Virus record (IMG/VR): IMGVR_UViG_2671180770_000023
Reading direction: 5' to 3' (one strand)
Source of the DNA: a virus
Lineage: Duplodnaviria; Heunggongvirae; Uroviricota; Caudoviricetes
DNA: 10,401 nucleotides
This document shows, piece after piece, positions 217-10,401 of the stretch (its first letter is position 1; each line of letters starts with the position of its first letter). The translations under genes and the position numbers were made by a program. The notes below the pieces were generated by a model that saw only the letters and a program-made list of their open reading frames with translations, was not told the DNA's origin and did not search any database.

Positions 217-430
217 CGGGTCCTTCCTGGAATTATGGCCCGTTACGGGGCGGCGACCTCGCGGTTTTTATCTGTTTATGAAAATTTTTCTGGAAAAAGC
301 ATGTCGGTACTTCTCGAACATAACTATTTGTTTTTAAATAGATACACAATAAAAAGAAACGACACGGTAATCATCTAAAATGGCGATTTATGACGCTTTC
401 ATGTCGTTTCTCAGTTTTGTTCAATAATTG
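217..430 (+). other. Lambda-type cos site, copy A (cosQ-like 217-230, cosN 248-259, cosB-like 260-430)
   Basis: Contains GGGCGGCGACCT followed by CGCGGTTTTT...GTTTATGAAAATTTTTCTGG, which matches my recollection of the lambda left end. The cosB-like part has inverted 8-mers AAACGACA (357-364) and TGTCGTTT (392-399) resembling Nu1 R sites. Upstream CGGGTCCTTCCTGG resembles cosQ. Confidence 0.7.
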
Positions 431-1961: not shown

Positions 1962-3017
1962 TTAACCAATTTTGACGGTAACAAATTTGCGAATATCTGC
2001 CGGTACCGGCTGCGGTGCACTGTGTGTCTGCACGTACTCAATCGCCGGATCTCCGTCCTCAATCCAGTTTTTCGGGTAGTACATGTTTTGCGTTGCCCCC
2101 GTTCTTACTGCGTCCTGATCCATAATCGCACCATAGGCCACCAGCCCTTTATTGTTGGTGTTGCCCAGGACAAGCAAATCAGGCTCAAGGAAATATTTTT
2201 CTCTGCCGTCACTGTCGGCGTATTTGCCGGAATAGACGATAAGGGCAATATCGCCCAGATAGCCTTTAAAGCTCACCACTTCGCCCAGGTTTTTACATGC
2301 CAGCTCTGCGGCGGACTCTGAACCACGGGAAAGATCGTACAGCTCACGGAATTTTTTAAAGCTGCGTAACGTTCGCCATACCTCAGCGCCCATAATCATG
2401 ACGTTGGCGGGGCAACCTGCCTGATCGGCGTATAGTTCGATATCATAGATTGGATCGTGGATTTCTTTGTCCTGCTCTGACCATTTTTTACCGTCGGCCT
2501 GCTCTATGATGTTTTTTTCCGGTATCTTCCAGTCGATTTCATAGCGCTCTATGCCTTCGCCCTCAATGATGTTTTTTCCGGTCGTTACCGCATTTACCGC
2601 CAGCCATTCCACGCGCGCTTTTATGGCGTTTATCTGGCGGCGCATATTGCCAGTAATCAGGCGCATACGGCGATAGGTAGGGTCGTTAAGCTGTGCCGGA
2701 TCTTCTCCAGCCATGCGCATGATGGTTTTCGTTGGATCGATTTCGTGCTTTGGCTTCATGTAGCCAGGTTTGATTGTGCTGGTTTCGTACCCTTTATCGC
2801 GCTGAACCTGGCTACCCACCATAGGCGAACAAAACGCCGACATGGTGACTTCTTCAATGTCCAGGGTATCCAGCATGATGTTTTGCGTGCTGAATGTCGC
2901 CACGTTCGGGAAAAACAGCGTGGTAAACAGCGGACTGAATTTAAATTCCGCAATATCCCCGCGATTCAGGTACGCAAAAAGCTGGTTAGTGTTAAGTGCC
3001 ATTGCTTTTACTGTCAT
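1962..3017 (-). CDS. Major capsid protein, lambda gpE family (351 aa)
   Basis: FKFSPLF..LFFP...TSTIKPGYMKPKHEIDP...DPTYRRMRL...YPKNW...GDPA matches recalled gpE (FKFDPLF..LFF...TSEFTPGYVKPKHEVNP...DPAYRRRRI...YPKNW...GDPA). ATG at 3017 lies 4 nt after a G10 run on the coding strand. Confidence 0.85.
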   Translation of the reverse strand: MTVKAMALNTNQLFAYLNRGDIAEFKFSPLFTTLFFPNVATFSTQNIMLDTLDIEEVTMSAFCSPMVGSQVQRDKGYETSTIKPGYMKPKHEIDPTKTIMRMAGEDPAQLNDPTYRRMRLITGNMRRQINAIKARVEWLAVNAVTTGKNIIEGEGIERYEIDWKIPEKNIIEQADGKKWSEQDKEIHDPIYDIELYADQAGCPANVMIMGAEVWRTLRSFKKFRELYDLSRGSESAAELACKNLGEVVSFKGYLGDIALIVYSGKYADSDGREKYFLEPDLLVLGNTNNKGLVAYGAIMDQDAVRTGATQNMYYPKNWIEDGDPAIEYVQTHSAPQPVPADIRKFVTVKIG

Positions 3018-3463: not shown

Positions 3464-3874
3464 TCAGAACGGAATATCATCACCGTAGGGGTCATCGTCT
3501 CCCGCTGGTGGCTGATTACCCTGTGTGCCTGTGGTTTTGCGTCTGTTCCCGCCAGGACGTGCCGCACGGGCACTGATTACGCTGTCTGCAATAACCTGAT
3601 AACCCTGCCGCGTTTCCCCGTTCTGTCCGGTCCACTGGCTGACCTGCATCGTGCCGGATACGCTGGCAACGTCGCCTTTTTGATGTTTAGCCAGGAAGTC
3701 GGCCTGCTTACCAAATGCGATGACCGATAGCCATAACGTCGCCTGCCCATCCTGCGCCTGACTACATGGCAACGATACCGCCATACGCGCCAGCGTCATT
3801 GGTGTGCCCTTGCTGGTCTGTTTTACCTGCGGGTCGTCCACTAGCCGCCCGTAAGCGGCTATCTGTGCTGTCAT
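3464..3874 (-). CDS. ssb: Single-stranded DNA-binding protein (136 aa)
   Basis: OB-fold-like N-terminus, Gly/Pro/Gln-rich linker and the canonical acidic tail ...DDDPYGDDIPF. Start ATG overlaps the upstream stop as ATGA (3871-3874). Confidence 0.85.
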   Translation of the reverse strand: MTAQIAAYGRLVDDPQVKQTSKGTPMTLARMAVSLPCSQAQDGQATLWLSVIAFGKQADFLAKHQKGDVASVSGTMQVSQWTGQNGETRQGYQVIADSVISARAARPGGNRRKTTGTQGNQPPAGDDDPYGDDIPF

Positions 3875-4149
3875 GATTCCACCTCTCCGGTTTTAACGTT
3901 GATGGTTGTTACCTGTTCCGCTTCGGCAATCTCCCGCTCTGTCAGCGTGGCAAAATTTGCCGCCGTCGTGGTCATGAATGCGCTTATCAGTTCGGGATGT
4001 GCTTTCGCGTATCCTTCCCCCGCGTGGCGGTCTATCGTTCTGATTGCCACCTTTAAAGCGTGCTCTGTCATGTCTAACGCGCGATATTTCGGTTCTGTTC
4101 TGTCTCTGCGTTTTTTGAGTGATGTATTAAATTTCCCTGAAGTGTGCAT
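3871..4149 (-). CDS. Hypothetical protein (92 aa)
   Basis: ORF immediately downstream of the iteron cluster. GAGGGGG SD about 11 nt upstream of ATG at 4149. Translationally coupled to ssb. No family recognised. Confidence 0.45.
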   Translation of the reverse strand: MHTSGKFNTSLKKRRDRTEPKYRALDMTEHALKVAIRTIDRHAGEGYAKAHPELISAFMTTTAANFATLTEREIAEAEQVTTINVKTGEVES

Positions 4150-4198
4150 ATTTATTTTTACCCCCTCGTTTAAAAAGTTTTGAGTTGTGCCTCCCCTT

Positions 4199-4344
4199 GT
4201 CTACCTTATCTACCTTAGTGGCCCTCATACCAGTAATGGCGCGGCTTTCAGCGGGGTAGAGTGCTTTTATCCAGTATCTACCCCGTGTCTACCTCCCTGT
4301 CTGATTCAGGTAAAATCAGGTAGAGAGGGTAGATAGTGGGTAGA
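4199..4344. repeat. Iteron cluster, putative replication origin
   Basis: Eight copies of a 6-bp core: TCTACC at 4200, 4209, 4277, 4288 and its complement GGTAGA at 4255, 4319, 4328, 4339. Adjacent copies are 9-11 bp apart. AT-rich flanks at 4141-4185 and 4345-4370. Lies directly 3' of the primase gene. Confidence 0.65.
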
Positions 4345-4360
4345 CAGCAATTACAAAAAA

Positions 4361-4855
4361 TTATAAAAACGCGTCGCACTCGTCTGTTGTTATTGCGTTA
4401 GTCTGCGTTACCCCCTTAACTTTCCGCGTAATATATTCATGTCCGTAAACTTTTGCGGCAGGCTTCATAGCCTTGCCAAAGTCATTTACGTTTAGCGGTT
4501 TGCTCCTGCCTGCGTATGCCATAAACGCCAGATAGACGCGGTAAAGGCTGTTCCTGGTCGTGTACTTCACTGAATCGCCACCGCCGCCCATCATCAGGCC
4601 GCGTGCTTCCTCCAGAAAATTCAGGAACTGGCAAAACTCAATAACCGGATCCGTCTGTTGCTTTATTGCCAGAGCTTCATCACCGTCACGCTGTTCCAGT
4701 AGTAAAGCCCGTGCCTTCTCAGGGTCGGTAAAGTTCGCCAGCAATCGGCGGATAATGACAGGGATTTCAGCCGCGATCTTTTCCGGTAGCTCCCTGTCTT
4801 TTTCGGCCTCACTGACGATATTGTCGAAACGGAAAATCACGCGACGACGTGCCAC
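4361..4855 (-). CDS. P4-family primase/helicase, C-terminal segment, out of frame with the upstream segment (164 aa)
   Basis: Begins at a GTG. Sequence (A)RRRVIFRFDNIV...DPVIEFCQFL continues the conserved post-NTPase region expected after ...GVW in this family. Overlaps the upstream ORF by 19 nt in a different frame. Confidence 0.7.
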   Translation of the reverse strand: MARRRVIFRFDNIVSEAEKDRELPEKIAAEIPVIIRRLLANFTDPEKARALLLEQRDGDEALAIKQQTDPVIEFCQFLNFLEEARGLMMGGGGDSVKYTTRNSLYRVYLAFMAYAGRSKPLNVNDFGKAMKPAAKVYGHEYITRKVKGVTQTNAITTDECDAFL

Positions 4856-6108
4856 ACCCCGGCCCGTTCGGTGAATATCATCGGGTTATTGTTGGTCGCC
4901 AGCACCACCGCCCTGATTACAGCCGTGAAACGCTTTTCGTATTTCGGGTTAATTTCCACGGGGTCACCGCCCGTGATTTTCTTGATGCCCGTTCCTTCGC
5001 CTGTATATTTCGGCTGGTCAGCCAGGACGATAAGACGACTCCCGACAACCTGCGCACGTCCACCAGCATCATCAAGCGATGTCATTTCAGCGCTTACCGT
5101 GTTCTGTTTCCCTGCCAGAAGGCTGGCTATGTGCGTGAATGTACTTTTACCGCTCCCGCCGTCTCCGGTGGCCTCAATAAACATCTGCCAGTCGTACCGG
5201 TTCGCCATAATCATGTACAGCGCGGCACATATACGCATCATCTTGCGCGGGTCTTTTCCGGCTGCGTGCTTAAGCCATTTATGAAAGTTTGGCGCGTTAT
5301 CGCGGATGTTCTCCCCTGGTGCTGGTGGCGTGTACTCAATGCCGTTGTGCGTGGTGATCCAGTTCTCCGGCGTGTGCGGGGAAAATTCCCCCGTTTTCAG
5401 GTCAAGCGCACCATTGGCGAACGGCAGCAAATCGCCGGACGGCTCGCCCATTGGTTCGGCAATAACTTTTAACGCTTCCACGGCGTTATTGATTACGCGC
5501 TTGCTGAAAGTGGCCCTGTGCTCTGAATAGATCGCCACCATTTCGCGGCTAAGTTCCATTGTGCTGACCGGACACCATACCCCGCCGCGCCATACGTGAA
5601 CGATTTCACTTTCCTGATGCACACAAACGCCATCAAAGCGCTCGGCAAGCAGCTGCGCGCGCTCACTGTCTGCCATTTGTGCCAGTTGCGTATTTTTCTG
5701 CTCCGGCATGGTAAGCCCTGCGGCAATATTTTCACGCTCAGCATTCAGATAGCGCCGCCAGTTTTCACACTTCTGGACGTGCATTCCTTCGTGGTAAAAA
5801 TTTGCGTCCTGAATATCTGCCGCCGCCAGCTTCTGACCAATCTTTTTGGTCTCCACCAAATCCAGTTCTCCGGCCTGGTACAGCCTTACGCGTTTTTTTC
5901 CATCCGGAACAATTTTCAGTGCATCAAGTTCGGCAAGCTGATTTGGCCCAAGCCACACAGGCGGCACATTATCGCCGGATGCGGGGCCGTCCTGCTCCTG
6001 CCACTGTTTTGCATGTGCCCACGCATCACTACCCGCGAAAATAATTACCTCTGTGTCTTTGTGTTTTATTCCGCGTGGTTGTTTTTTTACGTTCGGTGCC
6101 AGTTTCAT
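4837..6108 (-). CDS. P4-family (D5-like) primase/helicase, N-terminal domain plus P-loop NTPase segment (423 aa)
   Basis: Walker A GDGGSGKST, Walker B-like RLIVLAD and KKITGGDPVEINPKYEKRF motif typical of the phage/plasmid primase P4-family C-terminal domain. AGGGG SD 6 nt upstream. ATG overlaps the upstream stop as ATGA. Confidence 0.8.
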   Translation of the reverse strand: MKLAPNVKKQPRGIKHKDTEVIIFAGSDAWAHAKQWQEQDGPASGDNVPPVWLGPNQLAELDALKIVPDGKKRVRLYQAGELDLVETKKIGQKLAAADIQDANFYHEGMHVQKCENWRRYLNAERENIAAGLTMPEQKNTQLAQMADSERAQLLAERFDGVCVHQESEIVHVWRGGVWCPVSTMELSREMVAIYSEHRATFSKRVINNAVEALKVIAEPMGEPSGDLLPFANGALDLKTGEFSPHTPENWITTHNGIEYTPPAPGENIRDNAPNFHKWLKHAAGKDPRKMMRICAALYMIMANRYDWQMFIEATGDGGSGKSTFTHIASLLAGKQNTVSAEMTSLDDAGGRAQVVGSRLIVLADQPKYTGEGTGIKKITGGDPVEINPKYEKRFTAVIRAVVLATNNNPMIFTERAGVWHVVA

Positions 6109-6404
6109 TTTTTACCCCTGAATACGTTAAGCATCTTTTTTATTTCCTGAATATTGGCGCGTGCTTTCTCCCTGCTGGTTGGTTTACTGCGGGGCGCTGC
6201 CTGTACCAGAGAAAAATCACGCCGAAACTGATAAACAGGCATCACGCAATCATATTCGTAGCCTTCACGACGGTAGGTGATGCGCCGTTCCTCCACGCCC
6301 TTAATCATTACCGTGCCGCCGTACTGGTCGCGGTAAATATCACCGCGCATGAATTTAGTGCGAGTTTTGCCACTGGCAGTTAAGCCAGAATATTTAAGTT
6401 TCAT
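6105..6404 (-). CDS. Hypothetical protein (99 aa), translationally coupled to the primase
   Basis: ORF with GGAG about 10 nt upstream of ATG at 6404. Stop overlaps the primase ATG. No family recognised. Confidence 0.55.
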   Translation of the reverse strand: MKLKYSGLTASGKTRTKFMRGDIYRDQYGGTVMIKGVEERRITYRREGYEYDCVMPVYQFRRDFSLVQAAPRSKPTSREKARANIQEIKKMLNVFRGKK

Positions 6405-6409
6405 TATTT

Positions 6410-6637
6410 TTATTCTCCGGTGTGGGGCGCTTTATTATTCTCGTGAATTGCCATAGCCTTATTGAGTTCATCAATAACAGGTGTCAATAATGTCTGAACA
6501 GCGGCAAACATTAATGATGAATGATCTTCGCCACCTTCCGGCACTTCAATTAATTTAATTAACAACGCATTCATTTCGCGTGCTTTAATTAATGCGTTTT
6601 CAGAGTGGATTAATACTTCAAAATGGATTTTATGCAT
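6410..6637 (-). CDS. Hypothetical small protein (75 aa) in AT-rich patch
   Basis: ATG at 6637 (the track's first M is a GTG at 6640). GGGAG upstream. Overlaps the preceding gene by 8 nt. Confidence 0.45.
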   Translation of the reverse strand: MHKIHFEVLIHSENALIKAREMNALLIKLIEVPEGGEDHSSLMFAAVQTLLTPVIDELNKAMAIHENNKAPHTGE

Positions 6638-6860
6638 CACAAATTTTCTCCCTTATTCTTTTAATGTCCTCATTAAGGATGTCTGTAACTTTTATCAGCG
6701 AGTTTTTGGCAATTATTTTTATTGTTTTAAGTTTTCTTTTGTCGTGCTCCGACTGTGATTTTCTCTCCATAATCTCCACCATGTGGGTAACATCAACGAG
6801 CGCACGTATCAGTATTTGCATTGCTTCTTCTGCTGCGTCCGGTGTGGTTTTATTGCACAT
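6630..6860 (-). CDS. Hypothetical small protein (76 aa) in AT-rich patch
   Basis: Internal ATG at 6860 chosen over the ORF-track start at 6914 because GGAGGGG lies 5 nt upstream and it avoids a 65-nt out-of-frame overlap. Confidence 0.5.
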   Translation of the reverse strand: MCNKTTPDAAEEAMQILIRALVDVTHMVEIMERKSQSEHDKRKLKTIKIIAKNSLIKVTDILNEDIKRIREKICDA

Positions 6861-7080
6861 GTACCCCTCCGCATTTTTTTTCGTTAGAAATAAGCGTTCT
6901 TCTTTCCTGTTCATCGATCAGGAATACGCAGACCTCACCGCTAAGGCGTTTAAGTAAGCCGATGATTGCCCCTGATTCGCTGTCGGTCATCATGCCAGGG
7001 TAATCCTCTGCCAGTGCGCAAATAACTTCGATTTGGTGGGCGCGTTCTGCTGCCTGTTGTAGTGTGATTTCCTGGCTCAT
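6850..7080 (-). CDS. Hypothetical small protein (76 aa)
   Basis: ATG at 7080 overlaps the stop of the Icd-like gene as ATGA. The longer ORF-track version (start 7200) would overlap the Icd-like gene out of frame. Confidence 0.5.
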   Translation of the reverse strand: MSQEITLQQAAERAHQIEVICALAEDYPGMMTDSESGAIIGLLKRLSGEVCVFLIDEQERRTLISNEKKCGGVHVQ

Positions 7081-7244
7081 AAGCCTACCCCCTGACGAAT
7101 ACGGGCGACAAAAATCAGATGTGCGTGCGGCAGCTGGGCGCGGGCTTCGCGTTCTGTTGCTGCCGTGACGGTAAAGAGTGATGTTTGTTTTTCCTGGCAC
7201 TGCATAAAGCGCCAGACAAAGTAAGGGCGTGCGGATACAGCCAT
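7077..7244 (-). CDS. Icd-like / Ash-family-like small protein, copy 1 (55 aa)
   Basis: Motif VWRF...TEREAR...FVARIRQG. TAGGAGCC SD 8 nt upstream of ATG at 7244. Family call is from recalled motif, not a search. The frame stays open upstream to 7580 (see findings). Confidence 0.5.
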   Translation of the reverse strand: MAVSARPYFVWRFMQCQEKQTSLFTVTAATEREARAQLPHAHLIFVARIRQGVGL

Positions 7245-7530
7245 GTGAAAGGCTCCTACAGTAATTTTAAGGAGTCTCGCTACTACGCTGCTAAACGGGG
7301 TGGCGAGACGTAACAGGGTTAGCAGACTGGCACTGTAGGAACCAGCGAGCGCAAAGGCTCCCCCGTTACGCCCCGCCATAATGCGGGTATGGGTAGGCTT
7401 ACGGACACAAAAAAACCGCATATCGGAATATAAGCGGCTGTCCGCTACAGTATTCAGGCTGCTAAACCCGGTCGCCATGTGGGCGACGGGGGAAGCATAC
7501 AGCCCCGTTATAATTTTTTGCAAGCGGTTT

Positions 7531-7728
7531 TTACGCATGATGTGACCCCTGACGAATACGGGCGGCGAATACAGCAACACAACCGGACGGGCAACGGCTA
7601 CGCGCTTCGCGTTCCGTCCAGGCGGTTACGTGGATGATTTGAGATTCTCCGGCACTCAGTGCCAGAAAACGCCACACAAAGGCCGTTTGTGTGTGTACAA
7701 GGTGTGGTATATGATTTACAGCAACCAT
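7531..7728 (-). CDS. Icd-like / Ash-family-like small protein, copy 2 (65 aa)
   Basis: Motif VWRF...TEREAR...FAARIRQG, paralogous to copy 1. CTAGGAGCC SD 5 nt upstream of ATG at 7728. Confidence 0.5.
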   Translation of the reverse strand: MVAVNHIPHLVHTQTAFVWRFLALSAGESQIIHVTAWTEREARSRCPSGCVAVFAARIRQGSHHA

Positions 7729-7897
7729 AACGGCTCCTAGTTTACGTTGTTGGTTAGAAGCCCTGCGAGTGGTAACGACACTTGCGGGGCTTTGTCTTTT
7801 CATCGATTACCTTGATAAAGGTGTCAGCCACGTCAATAGTGTTTTTCCGTTTTCTTGTGTGTATACTGTCAGCCACCTAATAACGAGGAAATCAGAT
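7729..7897. promoter_or_regulatory. Divergent intergenic control region between the leftward early operon and the rightward small-gene pair
   Basis: Plus-strand -10-like TATACT (7862-7867) upstream of the RBS GAGGA (7884-7888). Direct 10-bp repeats TGTCAGCCAC at 7822-7831 and 7867-7876. I could not find a convincing -35/-10 pair for the leftward operon. Confidence 0.45.
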
Positions 7898-8456: not shown

Positions 8457-8663
8457 TTAAGCAGCCGTTCCGCGTGCTTCCTGTTCGCGTTCTTTCTGCC
8501 AGGCCAACACATCATCCTCATACCATCCGCGACGGCGTAAACCAACGCGAAAACCCTGCGGAAATTCTCCGGCGTTGATCATGCTTTGCAGCGTGCTGTC
8601 TGCCTTGCTGTGGATAATTTTTTTTACTTCCTGGCGAAAGATAATTTTTCTGATTGCTTCCAT
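8457..8663 (-). CDS. alpA: AlpA-family phage regulatory protein (68 aa)
   Basis: STLQSMINAGEFPQGFRVGLRRRGWYEDDVLAWQKER matches the AlpA / prophage CP4-57 regulator pattern (recalled AlpA: ATIYDWLNPKSPRYDATFPKKRMLGVKSVGWIEAEIDEWLSQR). AAGG 8 nt upstream of ATG at 8663. Confidence 0.8.
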   Translation of the reverse strand: MEAIRKIIFRQEVKKIIHSKADSTLQSMINAGEFPQGFRVGLRRRGWYEDDVLAWQKEREQEARGTAA

Positions 8664-9159: not shown

Positions 9160-10401
9160 CTACACGGCTCGGATACCCCTTTTACCACTGGCGAGGGTTA
9201 CGCCCGTCGCCGCAGCCTCGACAAATTCGCCCCACCAGCGCATCAGCACGATGCGTTTTTCTATGTAGTTGCTCCGGTTGTATGCCCGTCTAACTTCGTT
9301 GGTGTCGACGTGGGCAAGTGCCGCCTCTATTACGTCCGGCTCGAATCCTTCCTCGTTCGCTGCTGTGCTGAATATGGCGCGTAATCCATGAGACACCAGC
9401 ACGCCAGCGAATCCCATACGCCGCAATGCTGCGTTAGCTGTCTGGCTGTTCATCGGCTGCTGTGGGTCTTTCAGACTTGGGAAAACGTAATTGCGGTGGT
9501 GGCTGATTGGTTTCATGGCCTCCAGCACCGCCATAGCCTGACCGGAAAGCGGGATAACGTGATCCCTGCGCATCTTCATGCGTCCGGCAGGTATCGTCCA
9601 TTGCTTCGCGTCCAGGTTGATTTCATCCCACCGCGTTGATGACGCTTCGGCGGGACGGGTTACGGTCAGTAACTGCCATTCAATCAGTAATCTGGTCTGC
9701 CGTTCTGTTGCCGATACTGATAAAGCCTGCATAAGCTCCGGCAGCTGTTCGGGGCGGATTGTTGGCATATGTTTTTTTACAGGTGAGGGAAACGCCTTAC
9801 GCACATTCATAGCCGGATTGGCATCAATCAGCCCACTGTTGGCGGCGTAATCCATTACCTCATTAACGCGCTGTAAAACCCGCTTGAGTGTTTCCAGGTT
9901 GCCGCGCTCCTTGATGGGGGTAAGCACTTCAACGAACCTTCGGGCGGTGAGGGTATCTATTGGCGTGTTGCCGATGAACGGGAATACATATTTATCCAGC
10001 GAACGCCAGATGTCTTTAATCGTGTTGGGGGCCAGATTCTGGCTGATTTTCACCTGGTACCATGCCGCCGCCACATTTTCGAACGTGTTCCCTTGTCTTC
10101 GGGCCTCTGTCTCTCTTTTTTGCCTCTCGTGGTCCTGCGGGTCAGTTCCGGCACTGATTAACGTCCTGTACTCGCTACGGCGTTTTCTGGCATCAGCCAG
10201 GGAAACATCTTCAAGCGATCCAAAACTCAGCAATATTCTTTTTTTGTCCGATGGTCGGTAGTAGGAAAATCTCCAGAGTTTTGATCCAGACGGTTTGACC
10301 AGGAGAAAAAGCCCTCCGCCGTCCTGCAGGGTGTACTCCTTTTGCGCTGGTCTGGCTGCTTTGATCTGCACTGTGGTTAATGGGTGTGTTTTTCTCGCCA
10401 T
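9160..10401 (-). CDS. int: Tyrosine recombinase, P4-type integrase (413 aa)
   Basis: N-terminal arm-binding-like region (GGGLFLLVKPSGSKLWRFSYY...) typical of P4-like integrases. Catalytic H-x-x-R (HGLRAIF) and C-terminal Tyr region (RAYNRSNYIEKR). ATG is the last three bases of the window. Confidence 0.9.
   Translation of the reverse strand: MARKTHPLTTVQIKAARPAQKEYTLQDGGGLFLLVKPSGSKLWRFSYYRPSDKKRILLSFGSLEDVSLADARKRRSEYRTLISAGTDPQDHERQKRETEARRQGNTFENVAAAWYQVKISQNLAPNTIKDIWRSLDKYVFPFIGNTPIDTLTARRFVEVLTPIKERGNLETLKRVLQRVNEVMDYAANSGLIDANPAMNVRKAFPSPVKKHMPTIRPEQLPELMQALSVSATERQTRLLIEWQLLTVTRPAEASSTRWDEINLDAKQWTIPAGRMKMRRDHVIPLSGQAMAVLEAMKPISHHRNYVFPSLKDPQQPMNSQTANAALRRMGFAGVLVSHGLRAIFSTAANEEGFEPDVIEAALAHVDTNEVRRAYNRSNYIEKRIVLMRWWGEFVEAAATGVTLASGKRGIRAV

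Follow-up and report, generated by a model that had tools for sequence, protein, structure and literature searches.

The iteron array 3′ of the primase gene in a relative of EcCICFT073 is very probably part of a PICI replication origin that has decayed by deletion and frameshift

Gene content of the island

The window, by which we mean the whole 10.4-kb stretch of DNA that was analysed, carries genes for an integrase (9160-10401), an AlpA-like protein (8457-8663), a DUF4222 protein (6105-6404), a primase, a single-stranded DNA-binding protein (SSB, 3464-3874), a capsid-E protein (1962-3017) and a Nu1-like protein (439-981), all of which are encoded on the minus strand, as in the layout of a PICI. 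The SSB is encoded by the island itself, ends in a DDIPF tail and forms part of the context of the replication module. Next to its gene is an ORF of 92 aa to which no function is assigned (3871-4149, minus strand); it lies immediately downstream of the origin described below, which is bordered by the conserved leader and ribosome-binding site (GAGGGGG) of this ORF (4150-4181, minus strand). The 211 bp at 4150-4360, between the 92-aa ORF and the primase gene, form the repeat-bearing intergenic region.

This region was matched in 507 of 5,426 complete Escherichia coli genomes, with up to 3 copies per genome. The matches include CFT073, where the island adjoins phoQ and has the gene order of the window, and where the repeat region is 93% identical over query positions 21-321. 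Judged by its sequence and gene order, the window is closely related to the prototype Gram-negative PICI, EcCICFT073. It is identical to contig CYAV01000012.1 of GCA_001277695.1, and an identical piece is present in the Logan assembly of ERR134545.

Some further features of the island were observed outside the replication module. Two exact copies of the lambda cosN 12-mer, GGGCGGCGACCT, located at 248-259 on the plus strand and 1115-1126 on the minus strand and thus in opposite orientation, bracket the Nu1-like gene. Two cos sites have been reported for EcCICFT073 (PMC6739421), and the copies in the window probably correspond to its cos1 and cos2. Two adjacent minus-strand ORFs at 7077-7803 have similar C-termini (…FVWRF…TEREAR…ARIRQG…) and look like tandem paralogues; homologues have Icd-like cell-division inhibitor genes annotated at this place. 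Finally, the segment at 6400-6900 (34-40% GC) contains several small minus-strand ORFs without a family match and holds the two least stable 30-mers of the window.

Eight iterons are clustered next to the primase stop codon

Counting both strands, the hexamer GGTAGA occurs eight times in the whole 10.4-kb window, as compared with a chance expectation of about 2.6 copies, and all eight copies lie inside 4200-4344. Read on the plus strand, four of them are TCTACC (positions 4200, 4209, 4277 and 4288) and four are GGTAGA (4255, 4319, 4328 and 4339), in agreement with an earlier reading of this DNA made from its letters alone (hereafter the sequence-only reading), which had counted eight copies, four per orientation. 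In 300 dinucleotide-preserving shuffles, the densest hexamer cluster never exceeded five copies per 145-bp span, while eight were observed, so that a chance origin of the array is excluded. The array of eight TCTACC/GGTAGA cores was delimited to 4200-4344 on the basis of these counts, the shuffles and the finding, described below, that diverged homologues have the cores at unchanged places and in unchanged orientation.

The orientation of the copies follows the string <<><<>>>, with start-to-start spacings of 9, 46, 22, 11, 31, 9 and 11 bp. A spacing of about one helical turn, which had been claimed for the array, is therefore valid for the four tandem pairs only, and does not describe the distances of 46, 22 and 31 bp. 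Similarly, the proposed extension of the core to GGGTAGA was found in four of the eight copies, while the other four read AGGTAGA; T-N-TCTACC-Y is a more consistent extension, with the T at -2 present in seven of the eight copies.

The last iteron is separated by 16 bp from the primase stop codon (4361-4363), and the array does lie directly 3′ of the primase gene, provided that the gene is read on the minus strand. The right flank of the array is the 3′ end of the primase ORF. AT content is 62% at 4150-4199 and 71% at 4345-4375, as compared with 50% for the whole window; the flanks are thus moderately AT-rich, as had been noticed, but the canonical AT-rich region of this type of origin is an internal one, located between iterons.

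The array comprises a primase-distal origin unit (4200-4293), intact in the window, in which two iterons are followed by a 40-bp spacer that is not AT-rich, one inverted iteron, a 16-bp gap and two more iterons. A three-iteron arm (three GGTAGA copies, 4319-4344, plus strand) is the sole remnant of the primase-proximal unit. A residual AT-rich tract (4340-4369, 80% AT) spans the primase stop codon and has the lowest stability of all 30-mers within 4100-4420.

Other kinds of element were also considered at the array. A DnaA-box-like motif, TTATCCAGT, is located at 4266-4274, between two inverted iterons, and close homologues read TTATCCACT at the same site (8/9 consensus positions). It was rejected as a DnaA box, since the motif is absent from diverged homologues and is therefore probably fortuitous. 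An RNA family was likewise rejected: the Rfam scan gave only a spurious miRNA-like hairpin generated by the inverted iterons, with 19 bits as compared with a gathering score of 76.

The intact origin of homologues is a dyad, of which the window has lost 77 bp

We compared the window with eight homologues from E. coli and Shigella, the intergenic DNA of which is in part too diverged for megablast; the primases of seven of the eight are 82-99% identical. The intact origin of these homologues has 11 copies of TCTACC/GGTAGA in the 288 bp that separate the primase stop codon from the next gene, with the orientation <<><<>>><>> and spacings of 9, 46, 22, 11, 31, 9, 11, 22, 46 and 9 bp. It is a dyad of two mirror-image units, each consisting of two iterons, a spacer of ~40 bp, one inverted iteron and two to three more iterons. 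Across the diverged homologues the hexamer cores hold their position and orientation while the spacers drift, and invariant columns among the eight homologues are more frequent in iterons (50/66) than elsewhere in the region (72/224; Fisher p = 3e-10).

In all eight homologues an internal AT-rich region has iterons to either side, an arrangement absent from the window. This AT-rich spacer, which belongs to the primase-proximal unit, is the least stable 30-mer of the region in the intact homologues, or is tied for it, and is presumed to be the melting site. The fact that the full architecture, including the AT-rich spacer, is kept in every homologue examined argues for selection on the architecture. 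The distal spacer also contains a conserved element that is not an iteron, a GC-rich block of 21 bp, CAGTAATGGCGCGGCTTTCAG (4231-4251), which every E. coli or Shigella homologue carries with 0-3 substitutions. Two copies of the block, each with 3 substitutions, are also found in an Aeromonas tecta relative, in an array built of different iterons.

The window lacks 77 bp that the homologues have. This segment holds an inverted iteron and two further iterons together with a 40-bp spacer that is 77.5% AT, so that 8 of the 11 iterons are retained and 3 are lost. The missing segment follows window position 4347, reads TAAAAAAAGGTTATCTACCTAACTTAATGCACTGAATTAAATGTATTTTTCTTTACTCAGGTAGACAGGGTAGACAG and is bounded by GGTAGACAG direct repeats; the comparison with homologues places the deletion junction, GGTAGACAG, at 4339-4347 on the plus strand. 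Among the matches listed, all E. coli matches at 94-100% query coverage span 76-77 bp more than the query, and the junction was not found as a one-piece match in the 5,426 complete E. coli genomes, nor in an exact-pattern search of GTDB species representatives. As both the AT-rich spacer and the iteron set beyond it have been deleted, the window represents a deletion derivative of an EcCICFT073-type origin and not an intact member. Recombination or slippage between the two GGTAGACAG repeats probably removed the AT-rich spacer along with the inverted iteron and the arm of two iterons.

A frameshift separates the origin-binding domain from the helicase

In the homologues the primase-helicase is a single protein of 584 aa, while in the window it is encoded in two pieces. 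The N-terminal fragment (423 aa, 4837-6108, minus strand) includes D5_N, DUF5906, the Walker A and B motifs and motif C, and is ended by a 1-nt deletion near 4859, where the window has GGCCGG-GGTG as compared with GGCCGGAGGTG. The C-terminal fragment, an ORF of 164 aa (4361-4855, minus strand), contains the Pox_D5 region (Pfam PF03288) and an origin-binding winged-helix domain. Residues 68-159 of this ORF match PDB 1KA8, the origin-binding domain of P4 alpha (E = 1.3e-7), which places the predicted domain of the window at 4379-4654 on the minus strand, with coordinates derived from the ORF start at 4855.

When the missing A was restored, a protein of 583 aa was obtained, residues 201-584 of which are 99-100% identical to an intact homologue. 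The frameshift lies after helicase motif C (VVLATNN) and ahead of the arginine-rich segment, and it detaches the origin-binding domain from the helicase core. Like the deletion, it is present in both assemblies containing the sequence, GCA_001277695.1 and the Logan assembly of ERR134545, which may derive from the same reads. The non-homopolymer context of the frameshift, and a repeat of only 9-10 bp at the deletion, make an assembly artefact unlikely for either lesion. Two independent lesions in one module, the deletion and the frameshift, suggest decay of the replicon or relaxed selection on it.

Apart from these lesions, primase residues 1-200 share only 71-77% identity with the homologue of locus L001 (6339-8093), as compared with 99-100% for residues 201-584, and this step in identity at residue ~200 points to a recombination breakpoint inside the gene.

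The repeat type changes with the initiator

The DNA just after the initiator gene was also inspected in more distant relatives. Those from Morganella, Pectobacterium and Serratia (loci L011, L012 and L015), which have P4-like origin-binding domains, carry TGTTCAT, TGTTCACC and TGTTCAC repeats after the gene: TGTTCAT is present 11 times just after the primase gene of Morganella (L011, 3863-4282), and the exact P4 octamer TGTTCACC is found at the same place in Pectobacterium (L012, 4271-4690). An Aeromonas relative (L013, 3845-4264) has CAGTGCC repeats just after its primase gene. Islands that have an AAA_25 replicase, together with the identical integrase (413 aa) and the yejM-side attachment site, carry 7-9 copies of AAAGTGGGGA directly after the replicase gene, arrayed around an AT-rich centre (L045, 15540-15800; L046, 15640-15900), which looks like a swapped rep-ori cassette. 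In many primase relatives from Pantoea and Erwinia, the 420 bp after the gene contained no obvious repeat cluster. That the repeat type changes with the initiator indirectly supports initiator-specific recognition. From this co-variation, and from homology, we infer that the C-terminal domain of the PICI primase binds the GGTAGA/TCTACC repeats.

The intergenic region is orthologous to the published ori of EcCICFT073

The ori of Gram-negative PICIs has been located directly 3′ of the gene for the replication initiator, where two iteron sets flank an AT-rich region (Fillol-Salom et al. 2018, ISME J, PMC6092414). In that work the pri-ori segment of EcCICFT073 was cloned in a temperature-sensitive plasmid; the Δrep derivative gave no colonies at 44 °C, and for the Δori plasmid the number of colonies was significantly below that of the wild type, its maintenance being reduced and not abolished (PMC6092414). 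It was also stated that no other known bacterial replicon shares the organisation of the PICI ori (PMC6092414).

We mapped the primers listed in the supplement of that paper onto the CFT073 locus (L002). The pri-ori clone extends to the start codon of the small ORF that follows, while the Δori clone ends at the primase stop codon; primer rep-3c matches window positions 4357-4377 with one mismatch. Since the primer ends fall on both gene borders, the fragment deleted as 'ori' coincides exactly with the intergenic region of 288 bp (L002, 6030-6317), orthologous to 4150-4360 of the window. The test of primase-dependent replication that the sequence-only reading had proposed is thus already published for the orthologue, as pri-ori versus pri-Δori.

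The array is the already-described EcCICFT073-type PICI origin. Its class, that of an island or satellite iteron origin placed beside the initiator gene, had been recognized correctly, but the origin is not an intact one, as 77 bp are gone and the primase is split. A genuine origin could therefore be recovered from sequence alone, and its biology is not new, having been published for the orthologous island.

Function of this copy and alternative explanations

We consider it very likely that the array is the iteron part of an EcCICFT073-type PICI replication origin, decayed in this genome through the deletion and the frameshift. In an intact island the P4-alpha-like primase/SF3 helicase would bind the iterons through its C-terminal winged-helix origin-binding domain, and helicase hexamers assembled to either side of the AT-rich spacer would melt it; upon induction of the island, the primase-helicase would then unwind the DNA and prime its own synthesis. 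The eight iterons that remain are probably still binding sites. With the AT-rich core lost and the primase split, the replicon is probably defective. We are confident that the island of this genome would be unable to replicate itself, and lean, with less assurance, towards an origin that would be defective in cis even if an intact primase were supplied. Since one complete unit, the three-iteron arm and the 80% AT tract at 4340-4369 remain, a residual activity driven in trans by a related primase is possible.

Several other explanations were weighed against this one. The array might still be a working origin that tolerates the loss of 77 bp, driven either by the intact primase, of the same specificity, that a co-resident island supplies or by joint action of the two fragments, and this would agree with the complete distal unit (4200-4293), with the three proximal iterons and the AT tract that remain, and with the finding of up to 3 copies of the region in one E. 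coli genome. We regard it as unlikely, given that every homologue examined keeps the full architecture with its AT-rich spacer, that the frameshift parts motif C from the arginine-rich segment and the DNA-binding domain, and that two lesions in one module point to relaxed selection. Far less probable is a role of the repeats as transcription-factor operators for the downstream genes (the 92-aa ORF, ssb and the capsid genes) instead of an origin. The array is indeed upstream of the 92-aa ORF and contains inverted pairs such as CGGGGTAGA/TCTACCCCG at 4252-4285, but a scan of 3800-4700 revealed neither a sigma-70-like promoter nor a terminator, deletion of the orthologous region impairs primase-dependent plasmid maintenance (PMC6092414), the identity of the repeats tracks the replication initiator, and their layout equals that of P4 ori1. 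A secondary, autoregulatory role of the repeats is possible. As for a packaging site, a recombination site or a chance cluster, which we find scarcely credible, nothing speaks for them beyond the presence of the repeats: chance is ruled out by the shuffles, and a packaging site at the array was rejected because exact lambda cosN 12-mers are present in other parts of the window (248-259 and 1115-1126), in keeping with the report of two cos sites in EcCICFT073 (PMC6739421).

A more speculative reading, which seems to us quite improbable, takes the intact PICI origin as a head-to-head dyad of two P4-ori1-like units, of which one has the AT-rich spacer for melting and the other the GC-rich block CAGTAATGGCGCGGCTTTCAG, conserved as far as Aeromonas, as a second cis element that might serve in priming or loading. 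In this reading the window is a naturally occurring 'half origin' which, together with the detached origin-binding domain possibly translated from 4361-4855, might titrate or block the primase of co-resident related islands. If this were true, the locus of the window would be an incompatibility or interference determinant and not an origin.

With decay of an EcCICFT073-type origin as the preferred reading, the window provides a natural allele with two lesions in its replication module, which might be used as a ready-made test of the parts that the origin needs. The additions of this work to the published biology are modest, namely the double-lesion allele, the parallel with the layout of P4 ori1 and the conserved non-iteron block inside the origin.

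Comparison with known replication origins

The window resembles the EcCICFT073-type origin in the location of the locus 3′ of pri-rep, in its gene order, and in the retained 211 bp, which are 93-99% identical and carry co-located GGTAGA iterons. It differs in the absence of the 77 bp, which hold the AT-rich spacer and 3 of the 11 iterons, and in its frameshifted primase.

Iteron plasmids such as pSC101, RK2, R6K, P1 and F also have repeated initiator sites beside an AT-rich unwinding element. Their origins are built of iterons of 17-22 bp, mostly direct repeats, and rely on DnaA boxes and DnaB loading. In contrast, the PICI repeats are 6-8 bp long and occur in both orientations, and the PICI initiator is itself a primase-helicase; the window has no 17-22-bp direct iterons with conserved DnaA boxes and does not belong to this classical type. 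In the SaPI origins, six to twelve short iterons are located directly downstream of rep, on both sides of an AT-rich region, and are bound by a self-loading helicase with a C-terminal winged helix (PMC9371898). SaPI Rep binds its iterons through this domain and melts the origin without ATP (PMC9371898). However, SaPI Rep belongs to another lineage and its iterons have other sequences; no sequence relationship is expected.

With P4 the PICI shares a homologous initiator, including the origin-binding domain, and short iterons in both orientations with a 9-11-bp spacing. We take the P4 type 1 repeats to be the sites bound by alpha, following the annotation of NC_001609, the entry name of 1KA8 and general background. 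In the P4 record (NC_001609) crr lies directly 3′ of alpha, and repeat clusters are located at 4291-4590 and 9310-9413, the latter being ori1; the PICI array, 3′ of the primase gene, thus sits where P4 has crr. The type 1 repeats of ori1 are annotated in the pattern >>><>> with spacings of 10, 11, 22, 43 and 10 bp (NC_001609), and each half of the intact PICI origin, with spacings of 9, 11, 22, 46 and 9 bp, has this ori1 layout, in which three iterons are followed after 22 bp by one inverted iteron and, 43-46 bp further across the spacer, by two more iterons. The layout is therefore present twice, as a dyad, in the intact homologues, while the window keeps the distal unit only, with a spacer that, unlike the one in ori1, is not AT-rich. 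The spacings of this unit (9, 46, 22 and 11 bp) correspond to those of P4 (10, 43, 22 and 11 bp) on the opposite strand. The distal half was also tried as a P4 crr repeat, an assignment that was rejected because 3 of 5 elements fit crr, as compared with 5 of 5 for an inverted ori1 unit.

At the level of the repeats themselves, the P4 type 1 iteron TGTTCACC is not present as an iteron of the window, where the consensus is T-N-TCTACC and the best copies read TGTCTACC; the PICI octamer TGTCTACC agrees with TGTTCACC at 6 of 8 positions. Besides this difference in core sequence, the PICI origin is a dyad of two units and forms a single compact cluster, which spans 145 bp in the window, whereas ori and crr of P4 are ~4.7 kb apart, and the N-terminal primase region is longer in P4 (777 aa, as compared with 584 aa). 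Local alignment of the P4 ori and the PICI ori gave a score of 58, equal to the best of 200 shuffles, by which sequence homology is not established; since the layout is shared and the alignment is no better than the best shuffle, the resemblance between the two origins is architectural. At this level of architecture, the iterons of the PICI origin are laid out like those of P4 ori1, contrary to the 2018 statement of its uniqueness (PMC6092414).
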